A DNA stretch of 64,000 bases, from contig JBILHA010000002.1 of assembly GCA_044350705.1 (NCBI GenBank), forward strand, positions 242,295-306,294, given 5' to 3'. The stretch is from Candidatus Kapaibacterium sp. (GTDB taxonomy: Bacteria; Patescibacteriota; Patescibacteriia; UBA9934). This document shows positions 5,460 through 58,510 of this stretch, in pieces. Within the stretch, counting starts at the first letter, position 1, and each line of letters opens with the position of its first letter. A program made the translations under genes and the position numbers. The notes beneath the pieces were generated by a model. The model was not told where the DNA came from, ran no database searches, and worked only from the letters and a program-made list of their open reading frames with translations.

Positions 5460-7145
5460 ATGAAAGGCGGTAGGTACCTTCCTCGTTTTTCTCAAATTCA
5501 ACAGTTCCCTCGCATTCTTTCTTCCCTTGAGAAGCGCCTTTTCACCGCTGGGCTCGCGCTTTTCATATTAGGATCCGTCTTTCTCCTCATTGGAGGTTTT
5601 TCTCATTTTTTTGTTACCGTCCCTCAGCGCGGAGGCACGCTTACGGAAGGCATGCTCGGATATCCCCAGCTCATCAATCCCCTCTATGCCGATGCGAATA
5701 CCGTTGATCGTGAGCTGACCTCGCTTATTTATAGTGGCCTTCTTATTTACAATCCCACCTCCGATGCTCTTGAGCCTCATTTAGCGGAATCCTGGTCTTT
5801 AAGCGAAGATGAGAAAATGTACACTTTTACTCTCCGACAAGACGTTACTTGGCATGACGGAGAACCTTTTAGCGCATACGATGTCATTTTCACTTATTCT
5901 GCGCTCCAAAATGCCGCATACGGCAGTCCACTCTTTGATGCTTATCAAAATATTATTATTTCCCAGGTAGATGATCGTACGCTTACCTTTACGCTTGCCG
6001 AGCCTTACGCAGCATTTCCCGAACTTCTCACGGTAGGCATCCTTCCCGCCCACCTCTGGGAAGAAATAGCGCCTGCAAATGCTCGTCTCGTTGCGCTCAA
6101 CCTCAAGCCGGTTGGCACTGGTCCTTATCTTCTCGAAAAAACAAGCAAAGATTCTCGGGGTATTATTCGCAGCATCACTCTTCAAACTTTCGATGAGTAT
6201 CTCGGCATCCGCCCTTACCTCGATGAGATTATCGTTAAGTTCTTCTCAAACACCACGGACATCATGCAGGCGCTCCAGACAAAGCGCATCGATGCCACCG
6301 CTACTCTTTCTCTTACCGAAGCCCTCACCTTACAGGATGACAACGCACTTCGCATCACCCCCCTCCCGCTCTCTCAATACGTAGGGGCATTCTTCAATAC
6401 ACAAAAGGATCCGCTTAAGTCACTTGAAATCCGCAAGGCCCTCACCCTCTCACTTGATATTCCCGCCATCACCGCAGATGCAACAGGAAATCTGGGGCAG
6501 CCCACGGGATTCGCCCTGCCAGGCTTTCCTGCTACCGCCGCGAGCGTTCAGGATACTCAAACTGCCAGCCTCATCTTAGAAGAAGCTGGGTGGTCTCTCA
6601 ACGAGAACGGCAAGCGTACTCAAGGAAACAATGAGCTCACCCTTACTATCACCACCGCAGAACGCCCCGAGCTTCTGCGCGCCGCGGAAAAGGTAGCGGA
6701 AAACTGGAGATCTTTAGGCATTACCGTCACGGTCTCCCCCCTCTCCTACGCTGGCATTGCCACCGCTCTTCAAGAAAAGACCTACGATGTTCTTCTTGCC
6801 GCGGAGCAATATGGCATTATTGCCGATCCTTATCCATTCTGGCACTCCACAGGAAAGAATGCCGGCGGTCTCAATATGAGCCTCTTCTCGACTTCAGCAG
6901 CGGATACGGCGGTCAGTACTCTTCGAACTTCTGCAAATACTGAGAAGCGTCAAGAAGCGTTCAATACGCTCAATCAAGAACTTCTTGAGCACATGCCGGT
7001 CGTTTTCCTTTTCCAAAACGCCCTTCCGCTTGTCCATACCGTGGATATCATGGGGATAACTCCTGATGCCATCCCCCATACTTCTGCGCGCTGGCTCCTG
7101 GAATCTTCATGGTATCGCCGGACGGGCCTTTCTTGGAAGTTTTGA
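5460..7145 (+). CDS. ABC transporter substrate-binding protein, family 5 (OppA/DppA-like), membrane-anchored
   Basis: SBP_bac_5-like architecture in a 597-aa ORF; N-terminal TM LFTAGLALFILGSVFLLIGGF. ATG at 5460 preferred over the TTG at 5352. Confidence 0.75.
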   Translation: MKGGRYLPRFSQIQQFPRILSSLEKRLFTAGLALFILGSVFLLIGGFSHFFVTVPQRGGTLTEGMLGYPQLINPLYADANTVDRELTSLIYSGLLIYNPTSDALEPHLAESWSLSEDEKMYTFTLRQDVTWHDGEPFSAYDVIFTYSALQNAAYGSPLFDAYQNIIISQVDDRTLTFTLAEPYAAFPELLTVGILPAHLWEEIAPANARLVALNLKPVGTGPYLLEKTSKDSRGIIRSITLQTFDEYLGIRPYLDEIIVKFFSNTTDIMQALQTKRIDATATLSLTEALTLQDDNALRITPLPLSQYVGAFFNTQKDPLKSLEIRKALTLSLDIPAITADATGNLGQPTGFALPGFPATAASVQDTQTASLILEEAGWSLNENGKRTQGNNELTLTITTAERPELLRAAEKVAENWRSLGITVTVSPLSYAGIATALQEKTYDVLLAAEQYGIIADPYPFWHSTGKNAGGLNMSLFSTSAADTAVSTLRTSANTEKRQEAFNTLNQELLEHMPVVFLFQNALPLVHTVDIMGITPDAIPHTSARWLLESSWYRRTGLSWKF

Positions 7146-7210
7146 CCTTCCTCTCTTTTCATGATACGCTTTCTCGTGATTTTGCCGCGCTCTTACGCCG
7201 GCGTTTAGCG

Positions 7211-7250
7211 AAAAGGGATTTCGCATGGGTGCGTAGGGATTACGCTTGAG
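7211..7250. repeat. Direct repeat R1 (aaaagggatttcgcatgggtgcgtagggattacgcttg); partner R2 at 7592-7630
   Basis: About 75-80% identity over about 40 nt. The two copies flank the structured element plus tRNA-Leu(CAG). Confidence 0.5.
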
Positions 7251-7367
7251 GACATGGGTATTTCTCTTGAAAAACGGATGAATTGAGGGAGGAAAGGATT
7301 TCACCTGAAAGGAAATTTTTTCCTCAATAAAGAACGTATTTTTTCACTGATAATAAGCTCACTTCTG

Positions 7368-7491
7368 GAGAACGGCTTTATTTCGAGGCAGTTTTTGTTC
7401 CGAAGAGGGAGGATTGCCGAGAGGTACTCATGCGTACGGCGAGGCAACCGAACCGATGAAGACAAAAAATGACCGAGATAAAGCCGTTCTC
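7368..7491 (+). ncRNA. Unclassified structured RNA element, copy 2 of 3; 124 nt, ends 7 nt upstream of tRNA-Leu(CAG)
   Basis: Closing helix gagaacggctttatttcg (7368-7385) / cgagataaagccgttctc (7474-7491), 18 bp with one G-U. Internal boxes identical to copy 1. A G-U wobble supports the + strand being the RNA strand. Confidence 0.55.
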
Positions 7492-7498
7492 CCAACGG

Positions 7499-7585
7499 GC
7501 GGATGTGGCGGAATTGGCATACGCGCAGGTCTCAGAAGCCTGTCCTTTCACGAGGTTGAGGGTTCAAGTCCCTCCATCCGCACCA
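7499..7585 (+). tRNA. tRNA-Leu, anticodon CAG
   Basis: GCGGATG...CATCCGC-A-CCA acceptor. Anticodon stem CAGGT/GCCTG with loop CTCAGAA. Long variable arm (class II). T-loop GGTTCAAGTCC. CCA encoded. Confidence 0.9.
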
Positions 7586-7591
7586 AATGTA

Positions 7592-7630
7592 AAAAGGGAT
7601 TTCATATGGGAGTACGGGGATTACGCCTGG
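7592..7630. repeat. Direct repeat R2 (aaaagggatttcatatgggagtacggggattacgcctgg)
   Basis: Partner of R1 at 7211-7250. Begins 7 nt after the tRNA-Leu(CAG) CCA. Confidence 0.5.
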
Positions 7631-7741
7631 AAACGTAGGGAGTATGTATGGAAGCACGGTGAGTGAGGCGGTGGGAATGGGTTTAGTGTTTTTGTAAGTG
7701 TAGTTTCTTGAAAACTCGACTCACAAAAGTACTAAAACTTA

Positions 7742-9628
7742 ATGATTACTTTTATTATGGGAAATTTTAAACCATTCTCACCTTCTCCTCGCGCACCGCA
7801 GGGTGGAGGAAAACCCACTGGACGCAGCAGTGGTGGACGTCCCCCTTTTAAGCGAGGCGGCTTCCGTAAAGATATGCGCCGAGGACCTGCGGCTCCCCTT
7901 ACCCCTGCAGAAGTCGGGCAATCGGCTCCTCTTTTTGCGACTCCTACTGATGATAAAGTACGCGTCATTGTTCTGGGTGGTCTCGAGGAAGTCGGGATCA
8001 ACTGTACGCTGATTGAGTACAAAGATGACATTATCTTGGTAGACATGGGTCTCATGTTCCCTACCGAAGAGATGCCCGGCGTTGACTATCTTATCCCAAA
8101 CATGTCGTATGTTCGCGGAAAAGAAAAGAACATTCGGGGTGTTATTATCACCCACGGTCACTACGATCACATCGGTGCTATTCCTCATGTTGTACCAAAA
8201 ATTGGCAACCCTACCGTGTATGCACTTCCGGTTGCTGCGGGAATTATCAATAAGCGCCAGACTGACTTTCCAGAATCGAAAGTGAATGTAAAAACACTTG
8301 GCGTAGATTCCACCATTCAGCTCGGTGTCTTTAAAGTGCACTTCTTCCACATTAACCACAACATTCCTGATTCTGTAGGTATTGTTATTGAAACGCCCAA
8401 CGGCATCATCTGTCATACGGGCGACTGGAAGTACGACTTCCATCCCGTAGGCGCTCCTCCTGCAGACTTTCATAAGATGGCTCGTCTTGGCGAACAGGGA
8501 GTTACGCTTCTCATGGGCGACTCGACAAATGCTGATCGTGCCGGACACCAGAAATCAGAGAAGATTATCGGAGAAGAGCTTGAGAGCATTATTCAAAAGG
8601 CACGAGGCCGCGTTATTGTAGGCACCTTTGCCTCCCTCCTTTCACGCGTGAAGCAGATCATGGAGATCTCTGAACGTCATGGTCGCAAGATCGCGCTTGA
8701 TGGCTATTCCATGAAAACAAACGTGGAAATCGCGAAGGAACTTGGCTACATCAAAGTAGCGCAACGCAGCATTATCCCTATTGAGCAAGCAAACGAACTG
8801 CCTCCTGATAAGGTTACGATTATCTGTACGGGAGCACAGGGAGAAAAAAATGCAGCCCTTTCTCGTATCGCAAACGACGAGCACCGCTTCATCAAAATCG
8901 ATCGCGAAGACACCCTTATCTTCTCAAGCTCGGTGATTCCAGGAAATGAAGCGTCCGTCCAGCGCCTCAAAGATCTTCTCTACCGCAAGCGTGCACGCGT
9001 GATTCATAAAGATCTTATGGACGTTCACGCGGGTGGACACGCCATGAAGGAAGATATCAAGCTCATGCTTTCGCTCTTTAAACCCAAGTATTACATGCCT
9101 ATTGAAGGAAACCACTTCCTTCTTCGGGAGAATGCTGAAGTTGCCTATTCTATGGGCTGGAGCGAAGAAAACGTCTTCGTTGCAGACAACGGACAGATCA
9201 TCGAAATCTATCCTTCTGCAAAACCGGGCGTTTTGCCTGAGGCAAAGATCACCAAGGAAAAAGTTCCTACGGATCACGTCTATGTTGATGGACTTGGCGT
9301 GGGAGATATTTCCCAAGTCGTTCTGCGCGATCGTCAGGCGATGGCCGAAGACGGTATGCTCGTGGTTATCGCACAGTTCGAGCAACACACCGGTCGCCTT
9401 ATTACTGAGCCTGATATTGTCAGCCGAGGTTTTATCCAGATGAAGGAGAACAAGGAATTCGTGACGAGCATGCGCCAGCACCTCGCAAAGGCACTTCATG
9501 ACGTAAACCCTGCAACTCCCCTTGATCCTGAACAGGCAAAGAGCATTATCCGCGAAGAACTTGGCAAGTTCCTCTTCCAAAAGACGGAACGTCGCCCAAT
9601 GATTCTTCCGGTGATTATTGAGGTATAA
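7742..9628 (+). CDS. rnj: Ribonuclease J (metallo-beta-lactamase / beta-CASP) with a 70-aa Arg/Gly-rich N-terminal extension
   Basis: ITHGHYDHIGAIPH (HxHxDH) motif and RNase J domain order across a 628-aa ORF. N-terminus PRAPQGGGKPTGRSSGGRPPFKRGGFRKDMRRGP. Confidence 0.85.
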   Translation: MITFIMGNFKPFSPSPRAPQGGGKPTGRSSGGRPPFKRGGFRKDMRRGPAAPLTPAEVGQSAPLFATPTDDKVRVIVLGGLEEVGINCTLIEYKDDIILVDMGLMFPTEEMPGVDYLIPNMSYVRGKEKNIRGVIITHGHYDHIGAIPHVVPKIGNPTVYALPVAAGIINKRQTDFPESKVNVKTLGVDSTIQLGVFKVHFFHINHNIPDSVGIVIETPNGIICHTGDWKYDFHPVGAPPADFHKMARLGEQGVTLLMGDSTNADRAGHQKSEKIIGEELESIIQKARGRVIVGTFASLLSRVKQIMEISERHGRKIALDGYSMKTNVEIAKELGYIKVAQRSIIPIEQANELPPDKVTIICTGAQGEKNAALSRIANDEHRFIKIDREDTLIFSSSVIPGNEASVQRLKDLLYRKRARVIHKDLMDVHAGGHAMKEDIKLMLSLFKPKYYMPIEGNHFLLRENAEVAYSMGWSEENVFVADNGQIIEIYPSAKPGVLPEAKITKEKVPTDHVYVDGLGVGDISQVVLRDRQAMAEDGMLVVIAQFEQHTGRLITEPDIVSRGFIQMKENKEFVTSMRQHLAKALHDVNPATPLDPEQAKSIIREELGKFLFQKTERRPMILPVIIEV

Positions 9629-9715: not shown

Positions 9716-10147
9716 GTGCTTGAACAAGAACTCAGCCATAAGCTGATCGGAATCGCGATGCAGGTCCAGAATTTATACGGAAGTGCTCATCAAGAAATTA
9801 TCTACCAAAGAGCTTTGGAAGAAATCCTTCGCAAAGAACAGATTTCCTTTCTCGCGCAACCTCGTCTCCCTGTACGATCTCCGATCTCACAAAAAATTCT
9901 TGGCTTTTATAAGCCTGATTTTTTAGTTTCTTCAAAAATTATTGTAGAAATTAAAGCGGTACCGTACCCTATAGCTAGGTTTGAACAGCAAATATCTAGC
10001 TACCTTAAAAATTCTCCTTACGAAATCGGATATCTGATTAACTTCGGGATCCACCCCCTTTATTACCGAAGATTGTTTCATACGAAGGATCGTAAGATTT
10101 CCCCGCATCCTCCCCATCCGCCATCATCTGTCTTATCTCATCTATGA
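9716..10147 (+). CDS. GxxExxY-family protein (PD-(D/E)xK nuclease-like fold)
   Basis: LIGIAMQV...GSAHQEIIYQRALEEEL...LPV...GFYKPDFLVSSKIIVEIKAV...YLK...GYLINFG matches the conserved GxxExxY/TIGR04256 pattern. Stop overlaps the trpS start. Confidence 0.7.
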   Translation: MLEQELSHKLIGIAMQVQNLYGSAHQEIIYQRALEEILRKEQISFLAQPRLPVRSPISQKILGFYKPDFLVSSKIIVEIKAVPYPIARFEQQISSYLKNSPYEIGYLINFGIHPLYYRRLFHTKDRKISPHPPHPPSSVLSHL

Positions 10148-11124
10148 AAGCACTCACCGGCATTAAGCCTACGAATCTTCTTCACCTTGGAAATTATTTT
10201 GGTGCTCTTCTTCCCGCTGTAGAAATGCAGAGGGAATACGAACTTTCCATGATGATTGCGGATTTACATGCGATTACCGTTCCACAGGATCCGCAGAAGC
10301 TTTCAGAACACATTACCTTTGTTACCGCCACCTACCTTGCTGCAGGAATCGACCCCAAAAAGACGCTTCTTTTTCAGCAATCGCAAGTACCTGCGCATGC
10401 AGAGCTTGCATGGCTTTTACAGTGCGTTGCCCGCATGGGTGAAGCTGAACGCATGACGCAGTACAAAGACAAAACTACCAAAGGCGAAATTGTTTCTGTA
10501 GGGCTTCTCACCTACCCCATTCTCATGGCTGCTGATATTTTGCTCTATGATTCTGACGTGGTTCCCGTGGGAGCTGACCAAAAGCAACACGTTGAACTTG
10601 CACGCGATCTTGCAGAGCGATTCAATCGCGATTTTGGACAAACGTTCGTGGTACCCAAGCCGGTCATGAAAAAAGAGGGTGCCAAAATTCTTGGTCTTGA
10701 CGACCCGTCGAAGAAAATGAGCAAGAGTGCACCGAGTGAGAAAAACTATATTTCACTTCTCGATGACGCAGATGCTATTCGCAAGAAAATTAAATCTGCA
10801 GTGACCGATTCCACCCTGGGCATTACCTACGACGAACAACGACCGGGGCTTCACAATTTGCTCACGCTTTTTGCCCTTGCAACGGGCCAAGATGCTGAAC
10901 GCATTACCCTTATCTACGCAGACAAAGGCATGAAGGATTTGAAGGAAGATGTTTCCGAAGCGATTATCGCTATGCTTTTGCCTCTTCAAGAAAAGATTCG
11001 CATACTTATGGATGACCGAGCGTACCTTGCATCGGTTGTGGCAGAAGGTAATGCGCGTGCGCATGAAATTACCGCAAGCAAAGTACAGCAGGCGAAGCAA
11101 GCGATGGGGCTTGCCCTTCAATAG
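10144..11124 (+). CDS. trpS: Tryptophanyl-tRNA synthetase
   Basis: TGIKPTNLLHLGNYFGAL (HIGH-like) and KMSKS motifs; 326 aa. Confidence 0.9.
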   Translation: MKALTGIKPTNLLHLGNYFGALLPAVEMQREYELSMMIADLHAITVPQDPQKLSEHITFVTATYLAAGIDPKKTLLFQQSQVPAHAELAWLLQCVARMGEAERMTQYKDKTTKGEIVSVGLLTYPILMAADILLYDSDVVPVGADQKQHVELARDLAERFNRDFGQTFVVPKPVMKKEGAKILGLDDPSKKMSKSAPSEKNYISLLDDADAIRKKIKSAVTDSTLGITYDEQRPGLHNLLTLFALATGQDAERITLIYADKGMKDLKEDVSEAIIAMLLPLQEKIRILMDDRAYLASVVAEGNARAHEITASKVQQAKQAMGLALQ

Positions 11125-11327
11125 GGTCAAAAAGCACATCTTTTCTCTGGAAAAACAGTCCTTTGTGGCTGTTTTTTCTTTCTTTTTCAACGATCGCTTC
11201 TCTCTCATCGAGGCTCATCCTTGATTTTTTCACCTTTTTCTGGCATAGTCATGTCACTCAAAAGCCGCTCGGGTCACTCCGACCTCTGCGCTGATGAGCG
11301 ACCACCGAAGGAAAAGGACCAGCGACG

Positions 11328-11846
11328 TTGCAGCTCCATCACACCCCCCTCTTCCGTCGTCGCATCCCCCGCGGCAAGACCGGGAATACCGACCCGGTCA
11401 ACCGCCTCCGCCGAATGGCGGAGGCGGATGCCCGCCGCATCCGCGGCATGCTCTCCAAGACCCTCTCCAGCCGAGAGCGCGATGATCTGCAGGCGCTGCG
11501 CCGCCGGCTCGTCGATCTCCTCGCGCAGATGACCGAGCGCCCGTGGGATACCCCGGTGGGAGCCCACGAGGAGATCACCGGTACGATGGCCAAGGCGCGG
11601 CGGATCTACGCCCGCGCGCCCAAGCCCGACGGTCGCCGCCGGGCCAAGCGCCCGTCGGAGCAGAAGGGCGTCCGCGCCAAGAACCGGCCTATCGAGGATG
11701 GCCCGGAGGACCACCCCGATGAAGAGAACGAGAACGATCTCGACCGAAAGATCGCAGAGATCGTCCGGCGTTCTCGAGAGCCCCGCGCGGATCCCCGAGC
11801 CGAGGCCTTCTGGGCGGCCCAAGCGGCGGCGGCCACCAACAAGTAG
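11328..11846 (+). CDS. Hypothetical Arg-rich protein encoded in a high-GC island (about 65-70% GC versus 45-50% backbone)
   Basis: 172-aa ORF, charged and helical in character (LRRMAEADARRIRGMLSKTLSSRERDDLQALRRRLVDLLAQM...). Abrupt compositional shift 11270-11950. Own terminator downstream. ORFs on all frames here are GC artefacts; this is the longest sense-like one. Confidence 0.45.
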   Translation: MQLHHTPLFRRRIPRGKTGNTDPVNRLRRMAEADARRIRGMLSKTLSSRERDDLQALRRRLVDLLAQMTERPWDTPVGAHEEITGTMAKARRIYARAPKPDGRRRAKRPSEQKGVRAKNRPIEDGPEDHPDEENENDLDRKIAEIVRRSREPRADPRAEAFWAAQAAAATNK

Positions 11847-11914
11847 CCCCCCCGCGGGGGGAACCGCAACAGGCGGTCGGAGCGCACCGCGTTCCGACCG
11901 CCTCACGAACCCGT

Positions 11915-11957
11915 CCAGGGACTCGGCCGCAGCCGATGTCCCTGGATTTCGTTTTTA
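11915..11957 (+). terminator. Rho-independent terminator after the GC-island gene
   Basis: ccaggga-ctcggccgcagccgatg-tccctgg stem followed by atttcgtttttatt. Confidence 0.6.
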
Positions 11958-11979
11958 TTGAAAAAAATCCCTTACGGGA

Positions 11980-12312
11980 TTATTCTTCAGTTTCTTTTTT
12001 GCCGTATTCCGGATCATTTTCCCGCAGCCACCGATCAGCTTCGTCATGCTCATCAAGATCGGCGAACGGCTTTCTCGTCACCGTGAGGCGATCCATCTGC
12101 ACTGCAGTTACCTCTGTTGGATTTACTGCTTTTCCCGTTGCTTCATCTCTTTTTTGTCCGTAAAGGTCTTCACCTTCATCAAAGAGATTGGAGTTATGGA
12201 GCTCTAGGCTATCAACCACTCTGTGCTCTTCGACCATACGGGGTGCACCGTCGGGATATCTTCTTTTCTTCATACTTCTTCTTACAATACGTTTATCTCC
12301 CCGGCTCTTCAA
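11980..12312 (-). CDS. Hypothetical small acidic protein (110 aa), backbone-like GC
   Basis: Highly charged ORF ending in ...ENDPEYGKKETEE. Hairpin aatcccgtaagggatt plus U-tract immediately downstream on the minus strand (11962-11985). Confidence 0.4.
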   Translation of the reverse strand: MKSRGDKRIVRRSMKKRRYPDGAPRMVEEHRVVDSLELHNSNLFDEGEDLYGQKRDEATGKAVNPTEVTAVQMDRLTVTRKPFADLDEHDEADRWLRENDPEYGKKETEE

Positions 12313-12349
12313 GACACTTCTTCACACCCTTTTCCCTATCCCCGATCTC

Positions 12350-12377
12350 TTTACAATTTCTCGATTTTGCGTATACT
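12350..12377 (+). promoter_or_regulatory. Candidate sigma70-like promoter TTTACA-16-TATACT
   Basis: tttaca (12350-12355), 16-nt spacer, tatact (12372-12377). Precedes the GC-rich structured region. Confidence 0.4.
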
Positions 12378-12383
12378 CTTGCC

Positions 12384-12840
12384 GCCTCATCGAGGCAAAC
12401 CCCCCACTCCGGCGCCTTGACGCCGGACTGCGAGAGAACCGTGCCCCTTCCTGACATCTTCGAGGTTCTTGAGGAGGAACTGCCTCCCCCGTGGCACCCA
12501 CAGCTGCGAAGCCTAAAGCTCCGCATCGGGCAGAGACCGGACAAGAGGGTGTCCGACCTGGTTCGAGAGGCTTTCTTTTACGAGCCGCGGAGGAACAAGC
12601 AACTGAGTCCATTTTTCAATGCCCGGGAAACCCGGGGGGTTCCCCTCCCCGAATACCTCGGCATGGATCCTGAAGTCCCCGAGGCAATTGCGAAAAGAGT
12701 ATGGGAGCGACTCATCTCGAATTCCTCCATCGTTGGTCCGCGGAACATGAGCGCTATCGTGAAACAAGGACTCGGGCTATAAAGCCCTTCCACATCCGGG
12801 CCGCTCCTCGCAAGGAGTCGGCCCGGATCGTTGTTTTTTT
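12384..12840 (+). ncRNA. Candidate GC-rich structured ncRNA or unknown transcript (about 450 nt) between a promoter and a terminator-like hairpin
   Basis: About 60% GC with many perfect local hairpins (ccggcg-ccttga-cgccgg, cccggg-aaa-cccggg, cctcgg...ccgagg). Terminal hairpin ccgggccgctcctcgcaaggagtcggcccgg (12796-12826) followed by a T-run 12834-12840. No convincing ORF on either strand. Confidence 0.3.
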
Positions 12841-12853
12841 AGAAAGTTCTTTA

Positions 12854-12882
12854 TTTACTTTCCATCATTTTTTTGATACTAT
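12854..12882 (+). promoter_or_regulatory. Candidate promoter TTTACT-17-TACTAT for RNase P RNA
   Basis: tttact (12854-12859), 17-nt spacer, tactat (12877-12882). Same -10 hexamer as the rRNA promoter. Predicted TSS coincides with the P1 5-prime strand. Confidence 0.5.
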
Positions 12883-12889
12883 TTCTCGA

Positions 12890-13463
12890 CCTGGCCAGCA
12901 AGACGATTGCCCCAAGAACTCAATCATAAGAAAGAGTGGGAGAACGTTCTTATTTTGGACTAGTTTCGGCGCGCGACGCTGCTTGGGTCGTCAAGACGTA
13001 CAAAATAGTACGTCGTCGACACAAGCAAGGAGCAAGCTGAAAATAGACGAAATAAGAACGTTCTCTTGGGGAGGAAAGTCCGAACACCCTTTATGCAGCA
13101 ATGCATATCGCAGAAAAGGCGTTGCTAACAGCAACCGCGCGTAAGCGTAGGGAAAGTCTCGTGCAAACGAAAGAATGCGCGGGGTCAGAACCTGCTGGAA
13201 ACGGCAGGCAATGACGCAACAGAGACATTCAAGCCCGCCCTGATTCGTTCGAGCGGGCAAAAGGTGAAACGTGTGGGGTGCGCAAGCTTCCCCACTCCCT
13301 GCATGGTGACATGCAGCGGTGGCAAACCCGCCTTGGTGCAAGAGCAAATTTGGTAGCTCGCGCTGAGCATGCTGGCGACAGCATGCCAAGAGAGATGATC
13401 GTCTCCCACTTCGCTCCTTCGGAGCTTCGTCGGGAACAGAATTCGGCTTATCAGTTGACCAGG
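12890..13463 (+). ncRNA. rnpB: RNase P RNA (bacterial type) with an unusually expanded 5-prime (P1-P3) region
   Basis: GGGGAGGAAAGTCCGAACACC (13068-13088; P4 5-prime strand) and ACAGAATTCGGCTTATCAG (13436-13454; P4 3-prime strand). GTGAAACG motif. P1 candidates cctggccag (12890-12898) / ttgaccagg (13455-13463). Core 13055-13463 is confident; the 5-prime boundary is less so. Confidence 0.7.
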
Positions 13464-13481
13464 TATGAAAAAATCCGTCGA

Positions 13482-14945
13482 ATGACGGATTTTTTCATTT
13501 CGGGCTTCCTTTTCCTGCTATACTTTCTTTATATGCGCCGCGCAGATTTAGCATTTGCTGCTCTCCTCGTTCCCCTTGATTACCTCGCGCTCCTCGCCGC
13601 CGCATCTTTTGCATACAGCTTACGTTTTGCGCCGTGGCTTACTACGTATATTCCCGTTCAATTTGCGCTTACCTATCGGGAATATATTCTCACTGCGATG
13701 GGTGTTGGCCTTATCTATCTCCTCACATTCGCTTTCTCTGGCCTGTATGCCGTACGACCAAAGGGGGGAATTCTTTCCGAGGCACTTCGCGTAGGTATTT
13801 CTTCTTCAGCGGCGATGGCGGTTGTTCTGGCGATCGCCTTCTTCTCTCGCGAACTTTTTGATTCTCGCTTTATCATGCTCGCTGCATGGGGTTTTGCTAT
13901 TCTTTTTGTTTCTACAGCCCGGATTGGCGTGCGTTATATTCAAAAAGCTGTCCGTCTTTTTGGCATTGATGTCACTTCGCTTGTCGTCATTGGCAAAACA
14001 AAGACCAGTCAGAATCTTCTTCATACCCTTGCCGCGCATCCGAGTTGGGGCTATCGCGTGGCGCTCAATCTTCCTCATTTTTCTTCGGACATTGAAAAGA
14101 AATTGCGCACTCTTCGTCGTGAAGGACGCATTGACGGTATTCTTCTCGCTAATCCAAATGCCTCACGCGAAGAAATTCTTGCGGCGAAAACTTTTTCCGA
14201 CAATGAGCATCTCACCTTTCTCTATAGTGCGGATATTTTTGCGGGAAGCACGCTTCGCCCTATTACCCACTCCTTCGGAGATTCTCCGGTCATTGAAGTA
14301 CCAAAGACACCTTTGGATGGATGGGGAGCTATTTATAAAAGAATGTTCGATATCGTCGGCTCGCTTCTGCTCATTATCCTGACCCTTCCTCTTCAGCTTC
14401 TCATCGCCCTCCTGATTGTGATCGATTCTCCTGGAGGTATTTTCTTTTCACGTCTTCCGGGCGGAGGAAAAGCGATGCGCGTCGGTCAGTACGGCAAGCT
14501 CTTTCATTACTTTAAGTTCCGAAGCATGTATCGCGATCGTCACTTTGAGCGCTACAACGAGCTTGCTGCACACAATACTCGTTCGGGGCCTTTGGTTAAA
14601 ATCAATAATGATCCCCGTATCACTCGCATAGGAAGATTTATCCGGAAGACTTCCCTCGATGAGCTCCCCGAGTTTTGGCTTGTGCTTATGGGCCGCATGA
14701 GCCTTGTGGGGCCCCGCCCGCACCTTCCTGAAGAAGTAGATAAATATCGCCCTGAACACCGACGCGTCCTTACCATTAAGCCTGGAATTACCGGCCTTCC
14801 GCAGATCAGCGGCCGTGCCGCGCTTGACTTTGACGACGAAGTTCGCCTAGATATGCACTATATTGAGAACTGGACGCCTTGGCTGGATATTACTATTCTC
14901 CTTAAAACCCCCTTTGTTGTTCTCCTTCGCAAAGGAGCTTCTTAA
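13482..14945 (+). CDS. Undecaprenyl-phosphate sugar phosphotransferase (WbaP / exopolysaccharide polyprenyl glycosylphosphotransferase family)
   Basis: C-terminal bacterial sugar transferase domain DELPEFWLVLMGRMSLVGPRPHLPEE; N-terminal TM helices. Start moved to the ATG at 13482 because 13278-13463 is RNase P RNA. Confidence 0.8.
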   Translation: MTDFFISGFLFLLYFLYMRRADLAFAALLVPLDYLALLAAASFAYSLRFAPWLTTYIPVQFALTYREYILTAMGVGLIYLLTFAFSGLYAVRPKGGILSEALRVGISSSAAMAVVLAIAFFSRELFDSRFIMLAAWGFAILFVSTARIGVRYIQKAVRLFGIDVTSLVVIGKTKTSQNLLHTLAAHPSWGYRVALNLPHFSSDIEKKLRTLRREGRIDGILLANPNASREEILAAKTFSDNEHLTFLYSADIFAGSTLRPITHSFGDSPVIEVPKTPLDGWGAIYKRMFDIVGSLLLIILTLPLQLLIALLIVIDSPGGIFFSRLPGGGKAMRVGQYGKLFHYFKFRSMYRDRHFERYNELAAHNTRSGPLVKINNDPRITRIGRFIRKTSLDELPEFWLVLMGRMSLVGPRPHLPEEVDKYRPEHRRVLTIKPGITGLPQISGRAALDFDDEVRLDMHYIENWTPWLDITILLKTPFVVLLRKGAS

Positions 14946-14954
14946 TTCCCTTGT

Positions 14955-16070
14955 ATGCGCGTTGCCCTTGTCCATGACCATTTACTCCAACAAGGAGGAG
15001 CAGAACGCGTTTTAGAAGCTTTCGCGGCCCTTTGGCCCCAGGCCCCTCTCTATACCCTCGCAATGGATCGGGTCCAATTTTCTCATTTTGGTCATCGTGA
15101 AATTTATACCTCTTTTTTGGACCGCCTTCCCCTTGGACGTACGTTCTTCCGCTGGCTTCTCCCGCTCATGCCCACTGCCATCGAGAGCTTTGATTTGCGG
15201 AATGCCGATGTCGTCGTTTCGAGCGTGAGCGCTCTTGCAAAAGGCGTCATTACCCATCCGCACACCATCCACATTTGCTACTGTCACACCCCTACTCGCT
15301 ACCTCTGGTCTGAAACCCAGGAGTACATTGAAGAGCTGGATGCTCCTCGCTTTGTCAAACGTACTCTTCCTCCAATGCTTTCTTGGCTGCGCACTTGGGA
15401 TCGCATTGCCGCAGAACGAGTGGACGTTTTTATTGCAAATTCAGAAACGGTTCGCAAACGCATTAAAAAATACTACGGGAAAGAAAGTATCGTCATTCAC
15501 CCGCCTGTTGATATCGATCGCTTTTCCGTAAGCGATACTCCAGAAAAGAAATACTTTCTTGCAGGAGGACGTCTCGTTGCCTACAAGCGCTTCGACATTA
15601 TTGTTGATGCTTTTACTAAACTTGGAAAACCGCTCGTCATCTTCGGTACCGGTCCTGCAGAGGGGGATCTTCGTCGACGCGCAGGAAAAAATATTACGTT
15701 CGTTGGGCGCGTGAGTGACGAGGAACGTTCTCGGCTTTTTTCTGAAGCGATTGCCTTCATTCATCCGCAAGAGGAGGACTTTGGCATCACGGCTGTCGAA
15801 AGTATGGCCTCAGGGCGCCCAGTTATTGCCTATGCAAAGGGGGGCGCATCAGAAACGGTTATCGAAGGCCTCACGGGCACGCTCTTTTACGAACAGTCCG
15901 CTGAGGAACTCATGGATACCATTCTCCACTTTTCTCCCGAAGCTTTTTCTCCGACAAAGATCCGTGCATTTGCAGATAAATTTTCTCCACATGCATTCCG
16001 GGAACGGATGCTTGCCTTAGTCAGAGAACATTACACTCGGCATAAACAAGATACTCTCGGAGACCGCTAG
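14955..16070 (+). CDS. Glycosyltransferase family 4 (GT-B)
   Basis: EEDFGITAVESMASGRPVIA EX7E-type motif; 371 aa. Confidence 0.8.
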   Translation: MRVALVHDHLLQQGGAERVLEAFAALWPQAPLYTLAMDRVQFSHFGHREIYTSFLDRLPLGRTFFRWLLPLMPTAIESFDLRNADVVVSSVSALAKGVITHPHTIHICYCHTPTRYLWSETQEYIEELDAPRFVKRTLPPMLSWLRTWDRIAAERVDVFIANSETVRKRIKKYYGKESIVIHPPVDIDRFSVSDTPEKKYFLAGGRLVAYKRFDIIVDAFTKLGKPLVIFGTGPAEGDLRRRAGKNITFVGRVSDEERSRLFSEAIAFIHPQEEDFGITAVESMASGRPVIAYAKGGASETVIEGLTGTLFYEQSAEELMDTILHFSPEAFSPTKIRAFADKFSPHAFRERMLALVREHYTRHKQDTLGDR

Positions 16071-50139: not shown

Positions 50140-50261
50140 GCACGGTTCTGGCGGCAACCTACTCTCGCCAACCTTGACTACCATCGGCTCACAAAGGCTT
50201 AACGGCCGTGTTCGGAATGGGAACGGGTGTGACCCTTTGGAAAGAACCACCAGAACCGTGC
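50140..50261 (-). rRNA. rrf: 5S ribosomal RNA
   Basis: Reverse complement contains CCCATTCCGAACACGGCCGTTAAGCC and GGTAGT motifs. About 120 nt. Terminator acagctcgaaagagctgt plus U-tract downstream (50108-50135). Confidence 0.85.
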
Positions 50262-50337
50262 GATCTTATGTGCTTCTCGCACAAGAATACTGATTGAAGA
50301 AATGCTTTTGCATTCGTCAGCCACCACGCGTTTTGCG

Positions 50338-53378
<3,041 letters not shown>

Positions 53379-57638: not shown

Positions 57639-57722
57639 GGGCGAGTGGTGGAATTGGTATACACGCATGTCTTAGGAACATGTGCTTCGTGCATGAGGGT
57701 TCGAGTCCCTCCTCGCCCACCA
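57639..57722 (+). tRNA. tRNA-Leu, anticodon UAG
   Basis: GGGCGAG...CTCGCCC-A-CCA acceptor. Anticodon stem CATGT/ACATG with loop CTTAGGA. Long variable arm. T-loop GGTTCGAGTCC. Confidence 0.88.
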
Positions 57723-57823: not shown

Positions 57824-57852
57824 TTGCAAAAGTGCTCATTTTTTGCTATACT
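57824..57852 (+). promoter_or_regulatory. Candidate sigma70-like promoter TTGCAA-17-TATACT for the receiver-domain gene
   Basis: ttgcaa (57824-57829), 17-nt spacer, tatact (57847-57852). Confidence 0.5.
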
Positions 57853-57920
57853 TTCATGTCTCTCGATGGATCATTTCGATCTGTTGAGAACAAAGGACTG
57901 CCAAGTCCCTTGGAGGGAAT

Positions 57921-58292
57921 ATGGCAAATGTCATCTTTGTGGACGACGAGCCGCCCATTCGTAGGACGCTCGTTCGGCGCGCAACGAGGGGGCATGGCCT
58001 CGTGGCCCATGCCCCCTCCAGCCTCAGCGAGCTCCTCGAGCTCGCTGAGCAAAACCCCAGCGCGGTCGTCGTTTTCGACGGCAACTGCGCCGGGGCGTTC
58101 GAGGGCCTGAACGGGTGGGATCTGGTCCCCCTCCTTCGTGCCCGCGGCTGGACCGGTGAGGGCGTCGTCTTCACCGGCGCGCGGGATGAAAATATCCCGG
58201 CCTTCAGGAATGCCGGCCTTCCGGCCGAGCGGGTTTTTGACAAGCCCGAACTTAGCGATCTCTTTCAGCTCCTCGTGGAGCTCGCCAAGTAA
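57921..58292 (+). CDS. Single-domain response-regulator receiver (CheY-like) protein, orphan, encoded in a high-GC island
   Basis: 123 aa. DD (FVDDEP), phospho-acceptor Asp (VVFDGN), Thr (VVFTGA), Lys-Pro (FDKP). About 65% GC versus the backbone. Confidence 0.65.
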   Translation: MANVIFVDDEPPIRRTLVRRATRGHGLVAHAPSSLSELLELAEQNPSAVVVFDGNCAGAFEGLNGWDLVPLLRARGWTGEGVVFTGARDENIPAFRNAGLPAERVFDKPELSDLFQLLVELAK

Positions 58293-58510
58293 TTCCTTCC
58301 CGTGAGCACACCGCTGTGTGTCTCGCGGGTCGCTTCAACATGAGAACTCGCCTTCTCGTATTGAAACGACTTTTCCACAAGAACTTCTTTCCTCTGCTTC
58401 GCCCGTGATAAGGTGGTTTTGCAGACATCACTCCCCCGTCTCTTTGTTGAGATGTGTGGGAGTTTTGTTTTGTACGACGTCGTTCCTCTCATTCATTTAA
58501 CGTACTGCAC

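Follow-up and report, generated by a model that had tools for sequence, protein, structure and literature searches.

Hotspots in which accessory genes lie between conserved core genes are known from comparative bacterial genomics. Recombining bacterial genes are, moreover, reportedly enriched in GC at third codon positions (GC3), an enrichment that Lassalle et al. 2015 (PLoS Genetics) are said to have attributed to GC-biased gene conversion. Here, we describe a GC-rich island in the gap between trpS and rnpB of a genome deposited as Candidatus Kapaibacterium sp. (Patescibacteriota), within a stretch of 64,000 nucleotides of contig JBILHA010000002.1 (positions 242,295 to 306,294; assembly GCA_044350705.1), hereafter called the window. 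The island carries one gene, designated B after its middle place in an A-B-C gene order seen in relatives, and is probably a monocistronic gene that is restricted to a subclade of Candidatus Uhrbacteria and occupies a trpS-rnpB slot of gene turnover, with GC-richness as a persistent property of the locus. A literature search returned nothing on the trpS-rnpB locus or on the GC phenomenon in Uhrbacteria.

The island (11262-11950) has a GC content of 68-73%, compared to 48.7% for the 64-kb window. In steps of 200 nt, GC rises from 0.465 (11100-11299) to 0.675-0.725 (11300-11899) and falls back to 0.515 (11900-12099) and then 0.49, which bears out a preliminary description of this DNA reporting a jump from about 45-50% to about 65-70% GC over some 700 bp, followed by a return to the level of the backbone. 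At 300 nt (mean 0.487, standard deviation (SD) 0.042) the island peaks at 0.73, which is about 5.8 SD above the mean, and at 50 nt its edges are placed at approximately 11250-11262 and 11925-11950. Only one other site in the 64 kb exceeds a GC of 0.62 (57843-58389). Raw tetranucleotide distance sets the island apart more than any other part of the window (ranks 1-3 of 633 segments), yet the island is host-like once GC is normalized. Its GC-normalized tetranucleotide bias correlates with that of the genome at r = 0.61, where all 700-nt segments average 0.57 (SD 0.13) and the statistic is noisy at this length, and the oligonucleotide signature beyond GC thus shows no deviation from the genome.

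The features of the island and of the slot around it, with the 5' and 3' untranslated regions abbreviated as 5'UTR and 3'UTR, are as follows.

11149-11190 (terminator at 11149-11178), plus strand: intrinsic terminator of trpS, a 12-bp stem plus T-run, forming the left edge of the intergenic slot
11221-11249, plus strand: predicted promoter of gene B, with -35 box TTGATT (11221-11226), 17-nt spacer and extended -10 box TGG-CATAGT (11241-11249)
11256-11327, plus strand: inferred 5'UTR, in which the GC rise begins, with the motif GCTCGGGTCACTCCGACC (11266-11283) and a likely Shine-Dalgarno sequence AAGGA (11314-11318) 9 nt before the TTG
11328-11846, plus strand: coding sequence (CDS) of gene B, 172 amino acids, TTG start, GC at codon positions 1/2/3 of 0.73/0.52/0.84, isoelectric point (pI) about 11, 18% Arg
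11395-11434, plus strand: hairpin within the CDS, 11-bp perfect G+C stem, -32 kcal/mol, z = -4.4
11274-11906, minus strand: antisense open reading frame (ORF) of 210 amino acids, not a gene, whose codon-position GC of 0.82/0.56/0.72 mirrors that of the plus frame
11847-11861 and 11871-11903, plus strand: two 3'UTR hairpins, with a C6/G6 stem and a 15-bp stem, respectively
11905-11957, plus strand: predicted intrinsic terminator of gene B, a long G+C stem flanked by ACGAAC...GTTTCGT and followed by TTTTTATT
11958-11986, plus strand: promoter-like site TTGAAA-17-TATTCT, the positional counterpart of a TTGAC -35 box found upstream of gene C in relatives
13043-13466, plus strand: rnpB (RNase P RNA gene), the conserved right-hand anchor of the trpS-rnpB slot

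Within ORF 11328-11846, the plus-frame pattern of codon-position GC persists in nearly every 90-nt block, and the host genes have a GC3 near 0.49. Because this GC3 periodicity is held along the plus frame, 11328-11846 is regarded as a real gene and the other frames as by-products of composition. The preliminary description had named the same 172-residue frame as the single plausible one and had ascribed the ORFs in all six frames to composition alone, and both statements hold. The antisense ORF was considered as the true gene and rejected, as its codon-position GC is the mirror image of that of the plus frame and it has neither homologues nor family matches.

The public gene call at JGI comprises 143 amino acids and starts from an ATG at 11415, which sits in the loop of the CDS hairpin. 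Homologue alignments begin at query residues 5-13; thus, the true start is TTG 11328, and the public call, corrected here, is 29 codons short. The conserved RRIPRG block (residues 11-16) lies upstream of ATG 11415, and in three of the four relatives with usable upstream sequence a TTG start follows GGAGTGCnn, the N-terminus reading L(Q/N)(L/I)Q in relatives and LQLH in the window.

A word-indexed search of 5.8 billion proteins returned only gene B itself. Exhaustive HMMER searching of 1.84 billion representative proteins identified another 13 proteins at E < 1e-10, along with two members that matched more weakly (120-236 amino acids; 31-51% identity to the window protein), and a profile rerun added one more family member. 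About 14 homologues, of 139-236 amino acids, span E values from 1e-9 to 4e-24. The 1399-residue protein P0015 was discarded as a spurious match to a WD40 repeat protein. The family shares an N-terminal block, RRIPRG...SDP..RL.R.A.A..KRIRGM, followed by P..V..GT...I..M.EAR.IY..A.K, a basic KG.RAKN linker, an acidic RYTGEE patch and a C-terminal DP.AEAFQ..D...NK. With the A1 profile, the window ORF gives E = 5e-55, and all motifs are present except RYTGEE, which has diverged in the window protein. The best homologues of the latter are P0002 (on L173; 70% GC, GC3 0.95) and P0003, both on unplaced short contigs. When other family members were compared with known families, scattered profile matches with E above 0.003 were all that appeared. 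On present sequence evidence, gene B encodes a small, very basic protein whose family has not been described before and is confined to a single subclade of Candidatus Uhrbacteria (Patescibacteria, the candidate phyla radiation (CPR)).

Loci of relatives were gathered with TrpS as the query from GTDB genomes and metagenome loci. All homologues of gene B with readable context belong to Candidatus Uhrbacteria genomes and lie in the same neighborhood as the window gene, with the order L19, T4SS-pilin, DsbA, SecG, SBP_bac_5, trpS, A, B, C, rnpB, Bac_transf, glycosyltransferases and DUF4012. In L083 (NCBI GCA_040960315.1), L086, L088 and L090, gene B is found 0.3-1.0 kb downstream of trpS and upstream of rnpB/Bac_transf, and the short contigs L173, L174 and L176 have the same A-B-C order; the L090 contig ends before gene C could be read. 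Gene A encodes a multi-pass membrane protein with a GC3 of 0.74-0.93 and, in most loci, a poly-Gly/His tail, e.g., GGGGGGGGHSKGGGGGHH; the one member scanned (L083) had no Pfam match. Gene C is poorly conserved and Pro/Gly/Ser-rich in several loci. In the window, genes A and C are absent and B alone is kept.

The GC3 values of the module and its hosts, with the positions of gene A where available, are given below by locus.

Window: backbone 0.49; A absent; B 0.84; C absent
L083: backbone 0.61; A (6970-7551) 0.75; B 0.82; C 0.74
L086: backbone 0.60; A (7097-7786) 0.82; B 0.79; C 0.76
L088: backbone 0.60; A 0.89; B 0.80; C 0.82
L090: backbone 0.38; A (7249-7824) 0.74; B 0.62
L173: A (102-581) 0.93; B 0.95; C 0.93
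L174: A at 1-297
L176: Bac_transf gene 0.51; A (2-328) 0.84; B 0.79; C 0.83

The island allele has a GC of 0.70 compared to 0.487 for the host, and comparison of codon usage with host genes, as the preliminary description had proposed, gives a GC3 of 0.84 in B against 0.49 +/- 0.07 in 17 backbone genes. The B genes of the relatives, too, exceed their backbones (44-54% GC) in GC. The GC-richness belongs to the module and resides mainly at its synonymous sites (GC3); every host examined shows it, whatever its own GC. This excess in every host points to the history of the locus or to constraints on it rather than to a recent import from a distant high-GC phylum. Expression-linked codon bias was dismissed as the cause, as the ribosomal protein L19 gene of the window has a GC3 of 0.49.

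The GC-rich stretch is also a transcription unit in appearance. Low-GC, promoter-like sequence had been noted upstream, and an AT-rich region (11205-11255) does lie directly before the island; the promoter within it follows the pattern TTGAyn-N14-TGn-CAnnnT, common to the window and the four compared relatives (L083, L086, L088 and L090). The 5'UTR motif in homologues reads GCTCGnGnCAyyCCG and is then followed by a Shine-Dalgarno sequence. The strong terminator formerly placed at 11915-11957 is present in a slightly longer form, with a G+C stem (11905-11952) that is directly followed by TTTCGTTTTTATT and a T-run to 11957, as in a predicted intrinsic terminator; the consensus scanner omitted it, the stem being long and bulged. 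The 3' segment of 123 nt with its three strong hairpins has a minimum free energy of -74.7 kcal/mol (z = -7.8), and the position of the terminator and its ACGAAC...TTTCGT flanks are kept in four homologous loci. As the unit is conserved from promoter to terminator, the GC-rich stretch would coincide with one mRNA of about 700 nt, the ends of which are inferred from sequence signals.

In the relatives, the terminator of gene B is followed by a TTGAC box and then by gene C. The promoter-like site at 11958-11986 of the window thus appears to be a remnant of the gene C promoter, with no gene C following; it overlaps the terminator hairpin (11966-11981) of a convergent minus-strand gene of 97 amino acids. 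A weak inverted match (15 nt, 80%) connects 11270-11284 in the 5'UTR with 11875-11889 in the second 3'UTR hairpin, and could reflect pairing of the mRNA ends or chance in G+C-rich sequence.

The product of gene B had been characterized as charged, helical and Arg-rich with no recognizable domain, and this agrees with its Arg content and pI, with the helices of an AlphaFold2 model and with the outcome of the database searches, in which HMMER returned an Uhrbacteria-only family and no known family or fold emerged. The model, based on a 17-sequence alignment, has a mean pLDDT of 77.6 (> 90 for residues 21-100) and comprises helices 23-44, 48-70 and 79-96, a disordered basic linker (approximately 100-134) and two C-terminal helices. 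The product is accordingly predicted to be a three-helix bundle with an Arg-rich N-terminal arm and a Lys/Arg-rich disordered linker. Our best guess is that it binds nucleic acid, because of its pI of about 11, its 18% Arg, the Arg-rich arm and the basic disordered linker. That a basic protein is encoded beside rnpB raised the idea of a connection with RNase P, but nothing supports it; the RnpA fold, which is alpha/beta, is unlike the all-helical fold predicted for B.

The trpS-rnpB gap is a hotspot of gene gain and loss across Uhrbacteria. It is empty in two genomes, measuring 42 nt in L010 (1087-1129) and 83 nt in L100 (3525-3608), and elsewhere its cargo is a ParE toxin gene preceded by a small ORF (L006), a HepT/MNT pair (L018), a gene that contains sigma-70 region 4 (L009), a methyltransferase (L015), a MoxR ATPase (L012) or unrelated orphan ORFs that are mostly GC3-rich (L008, L011, L013 and L015). 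In L093, rnpB (9006-9503, minus strand) is inverted relative to trpS. In the window, the place of the relatives' gene C (11980-12782) is taken by three orphan ORFs of ordinary composition (97 amino acids, minus; 54, minus; 113, plus), which have no homologues in any fetched locus, and of which the 97- and 113-residue ORFs have no Pfam match. No integrase or transposase was found among the window ORFs near the island, nor were there flanking direct repeats. A mobile element with terminal repeats was considered and rejected, with nothing beyond the weak 15-nt inverted match and no target-site duplication.

In the explanation that we favor, transcription would proceed from the promoter at about 11221-11249 through the 5'UTR and the TTG-started CDS to the terminator at 11905-11957. 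Gene B is the middle gene of a three-gene trpS-rnpB module in the four relatives with readable trpS context, and the window genome has lost A and C, or never had them, and keeps B. The protein would most likely be cytoplasmic, binding nucleic acid or a partner protein. The GC excess would most likely stem from repeated recombinational exchange of cargo among Uhrbacteria, including GC-richer ones, and/or from GC-biased gene conversion at a recombination-prone slot. Several points weigh against the explanation. In a neighbor-joining tree of TrpS, the window pairs with L093, and the pair is sister to L086, L003, L083, L088 and L090; near trpS, B is present in four of these five sister-clade members and absent in L003 and in L093, the closest TrpS relative of the window, so that losses or transfers are required. 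B is 30-55% identical where TrpS is 75-82% identical, and this fast evolution makes the B tree uninformative on vertical versus horizontal descent. The B gene of the window is 21 GC points above its backbone compared to approximately 10-12 points in the relatives, and simple vertical inheritance does not explain this doubled excess. Moreover, the promoter of gene B scores below the 9/12 threshold of the consensus scanner and was assigned by its conservation upstream of homologues. The window protein matched no family in Pfam, NCBIfam, PHROGs, PADLOC or PDB sequences, and a Foldseek comparison of the model with the PDB returned only generic helical bundles, none with E < 0.001.

The origin of the island can be viewed in several other ways. 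The preliminary description had proposed that a single-gene cassette was recently acquired from a donor of high GC, actinobacterial or phage-like, and a sharp GC step of more than 20 points, the rank as raw tetranucleotide outlier, the gene's own promoter and terminator and its absence at this site in L093 would all fit such an import. The meaningful homologues among the 1.84 billion representative proteins, however, are all, where context is known, in Uhrbacteria at trpS-rnpB; phage, plasmid and viral contig collections gave no matches; no integrase, transposase or flanking direct repeat accompanies the gene; and its regulatory sequences are conserved with relatives. Related low-GC genomes carry homologues with similar GC elevation, four of them at the same site (L083, L086, L088 and L090), an outcome that the preliminary description had itself named as counter-evidence, so we consider a recent import from a distant donor very unlikely, and what stands of the cassette proposal is a stand-alone transcription unit in a gain/loss slot. 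The other proposal made at that time was an assembly chimera. A fragment of a high-GC organism joined into a CPR contig would account for abrupt composition boundaries in a sequence of metagenomic source, but is hardly credible. The window corresponds to part of JGI contig Ga0453917_0000001 (462 kb). Contig Ga0453949_0009321 (L002), independently assembled from a second sample (3300042359), matches it at 100% identity over window positions 11098-15480 (4383 bp), both junctions included, three contigs carry a record of the protein, and homologous genes occur at the same junctions in assemblies by other groups (NCBI GCA_040960315.1, ENA and Logan). A further reading is an ancestral locus in which the B allele of the window was recently swapped by homologous recombination from a GC-richer Uhrbacterium, with the trpS/promoter and terminator/rnpB flanks as anchors. 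The 70% GC and GC3 of 0.84 in a 49% genome, twice the excess of the relatives, speak for such a swap, as do best homologues (P0002 and P0003) that come from unplaced short contigs instead of the TrpS sister clade, the existence of Uhrbacteria genomes of 60-64% GC (L095, L102 and L013, each 0.64) and the frequent turnover of slot cargo. Nevertheless, with the best homologue only 47-51% identical, a recent donor is yet to be identified, resolution in the B tree is poor and the GC-normalized tetranucleotide signature is host-like; the GC boundaries match the transcript ends, as would also be expected if constraints acted solely on what is transcribed. A swap of this kind is somewhat unlikely in our view.

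An RNA-level alternative, in which the island is primarily a structured non-coding or dual-function RNA and the ORF a by-product, draws on the folding of the island. The whole island folds better than shuffled sequences (z = -8.2), the CDS alone does so to a lesser degree (z = -3.7, the value also obtained for the L173 homologue CDS), and strong hairpins occur at 11395-11434 and 11847-11952. However, it is chiefly the 3' terminator region that accounts for the excess stability, the CDS hairpin is not conserved (z of -0.4 to +1.6 in three of four homologues) and the L083 homologue CDS folds like shuffles (z = -0.4). Conservation at the protein level, GC3 periodicity and a confidently predicted fold also oppose this alternative, and an Rfam search of 11100-13100 at E up to 10 yielded nothing relevant, with no match reaching the gathering score. 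The alternative is consequently highly improbable, and what the island contains is a protein-coding gene whose 3' end is strongly structured. A ribozyme or viroid-like element, suggested by CTGATGAG at 11291-11298 together with the z of -8.2, was also set aside, as CTGATGAG is part of no hammerhead match, Rfam returned nothing, the hairpin is not conserved and the CDS of L083 folds no better than its shuffles.

The monocistronic, subclade-restricted gene thus remains the reading adopted here, and a bolder version of it may be put forward. The synonymous sites of the A-B-C module lie 20-35 GC3 points above those of its hosts, be these of 44% or 54% GC, and could mark a strong local hotspot of GC-biased recombination or a cassette pool with its own composition circulating in the CPR, in which case B may work together with A and C as a nucleic-acid-binding or adaptor protein of a new type. 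We hold this version to be unlikely and offer it tentatively. If the GC3 excess were indeed recombination-driven, the slot would offer a small natural system in which to study GC-biased gene conversion in reduced genomes.

Several observations concern the surroundings of the slot and the remainder of the window. A gene of the PD-(D/E)XK nuclease family (9716-10147, plus strand; PF13366, E = 1.4e-23) lies between RNase J and trpS, sharing 4 nt with the start of the latter. In the trpS loci of metagenome-derived relatives (L003-L082), no counterpart was detected by tblastn. The gene has the look of a further insertion specific to this lineage. The rnpB of the window scores barely above the Rfam gathering score (103.7 vs 100; relatives 101-182 bits), and the longest Bac_transf ORF (13278-14945) extends into it, an overlap avoided by the JGI start at 13482.

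The second GC peak (57843-58389, up to 0.69) contains an ORF of 123 amino acids (57921-58292, plus strand) with codon-position GC of 0.72/0.44/0.77 and a sub-threshold match to Response_reg (24.8 bits, cut-off 30.2); tRNA-Leu (57639-57722) lies about 200 nt upstream of it. Like the island gene, this ORF may be a GC3-rich accessory gene. The 23S and 5S rRNA genes are located at 50146-53370 (minus strand), whereas the 64 kb yielded no 16S rRNA gene; the match to 23S extends over 3028 nt compared to a model of 2925 nt. These findings suggest that the rRNA operon is unlinked and that the 23S gene may carry an insertion.

The island is a cautionary case, in which foreign-looking GC turns out to be that of a gene restricted to one lineage, whose unusual composition persists at one and the same locus across relatives; composition alone misassigns the origin of such a gene. 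In addition, a small new protein family is defined in bacteria of the CPR, and the trpS-rnpB gap is identified as a hotspot of gene turnover in Uhrbacteria.

The predicted core of B (residues 21-100), with its three long helices, resembles generic antiparallel three-helix bundles such as designed bundles, the DnaK/Hsp70 lid, the vinculin tail and SCIN. The best Foldseek probabilities were obtained for de novo designed bundles, which have no sequence relation to B, and the Arg-rich arm, the basic linker and the C-terminal DP.AEAFQ helices of B have no counterpart in these matches. At the level of DNA, the island resembles a classical high-GC acquired island in its sharp GC and GC3 excess and in having its own promoter and terminator. 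It is unlike one in that related hosts show the excess at the same site, the signature is host-like, and mobility genes and homologues in a donor lineage are lacking.

The likeness to GC-biased gene conversion in bacteria lies in a GC excess at third codon positions, at a high-turnover locus and with no link to expression. The effect is larger here than is reported for GC-biased conversion genome-wide, at +0.2 to +0.35 GC3 over a patch of 0.5-2 kb, and the comparison is one of resemblance only. With chromosomal hotspots and islets between core genes, the locus shares its anchors, here trpS and rnpB, a gap that ranges from 42-83 nt to about 2.5 kb, and unrelated cargo including toxin-antitoxin pairs. 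Unlike these, the trpS-rnpB slot has no integrase, recombinase, tRNA attachment site or flanking repeats, and the B family is restricted to one clade and keeps the same position in genomes whose TrpS is only 63-67% identical to that of the window. The hosts of the trpS-rnpB hotspot are small-genome Patescibacteria.

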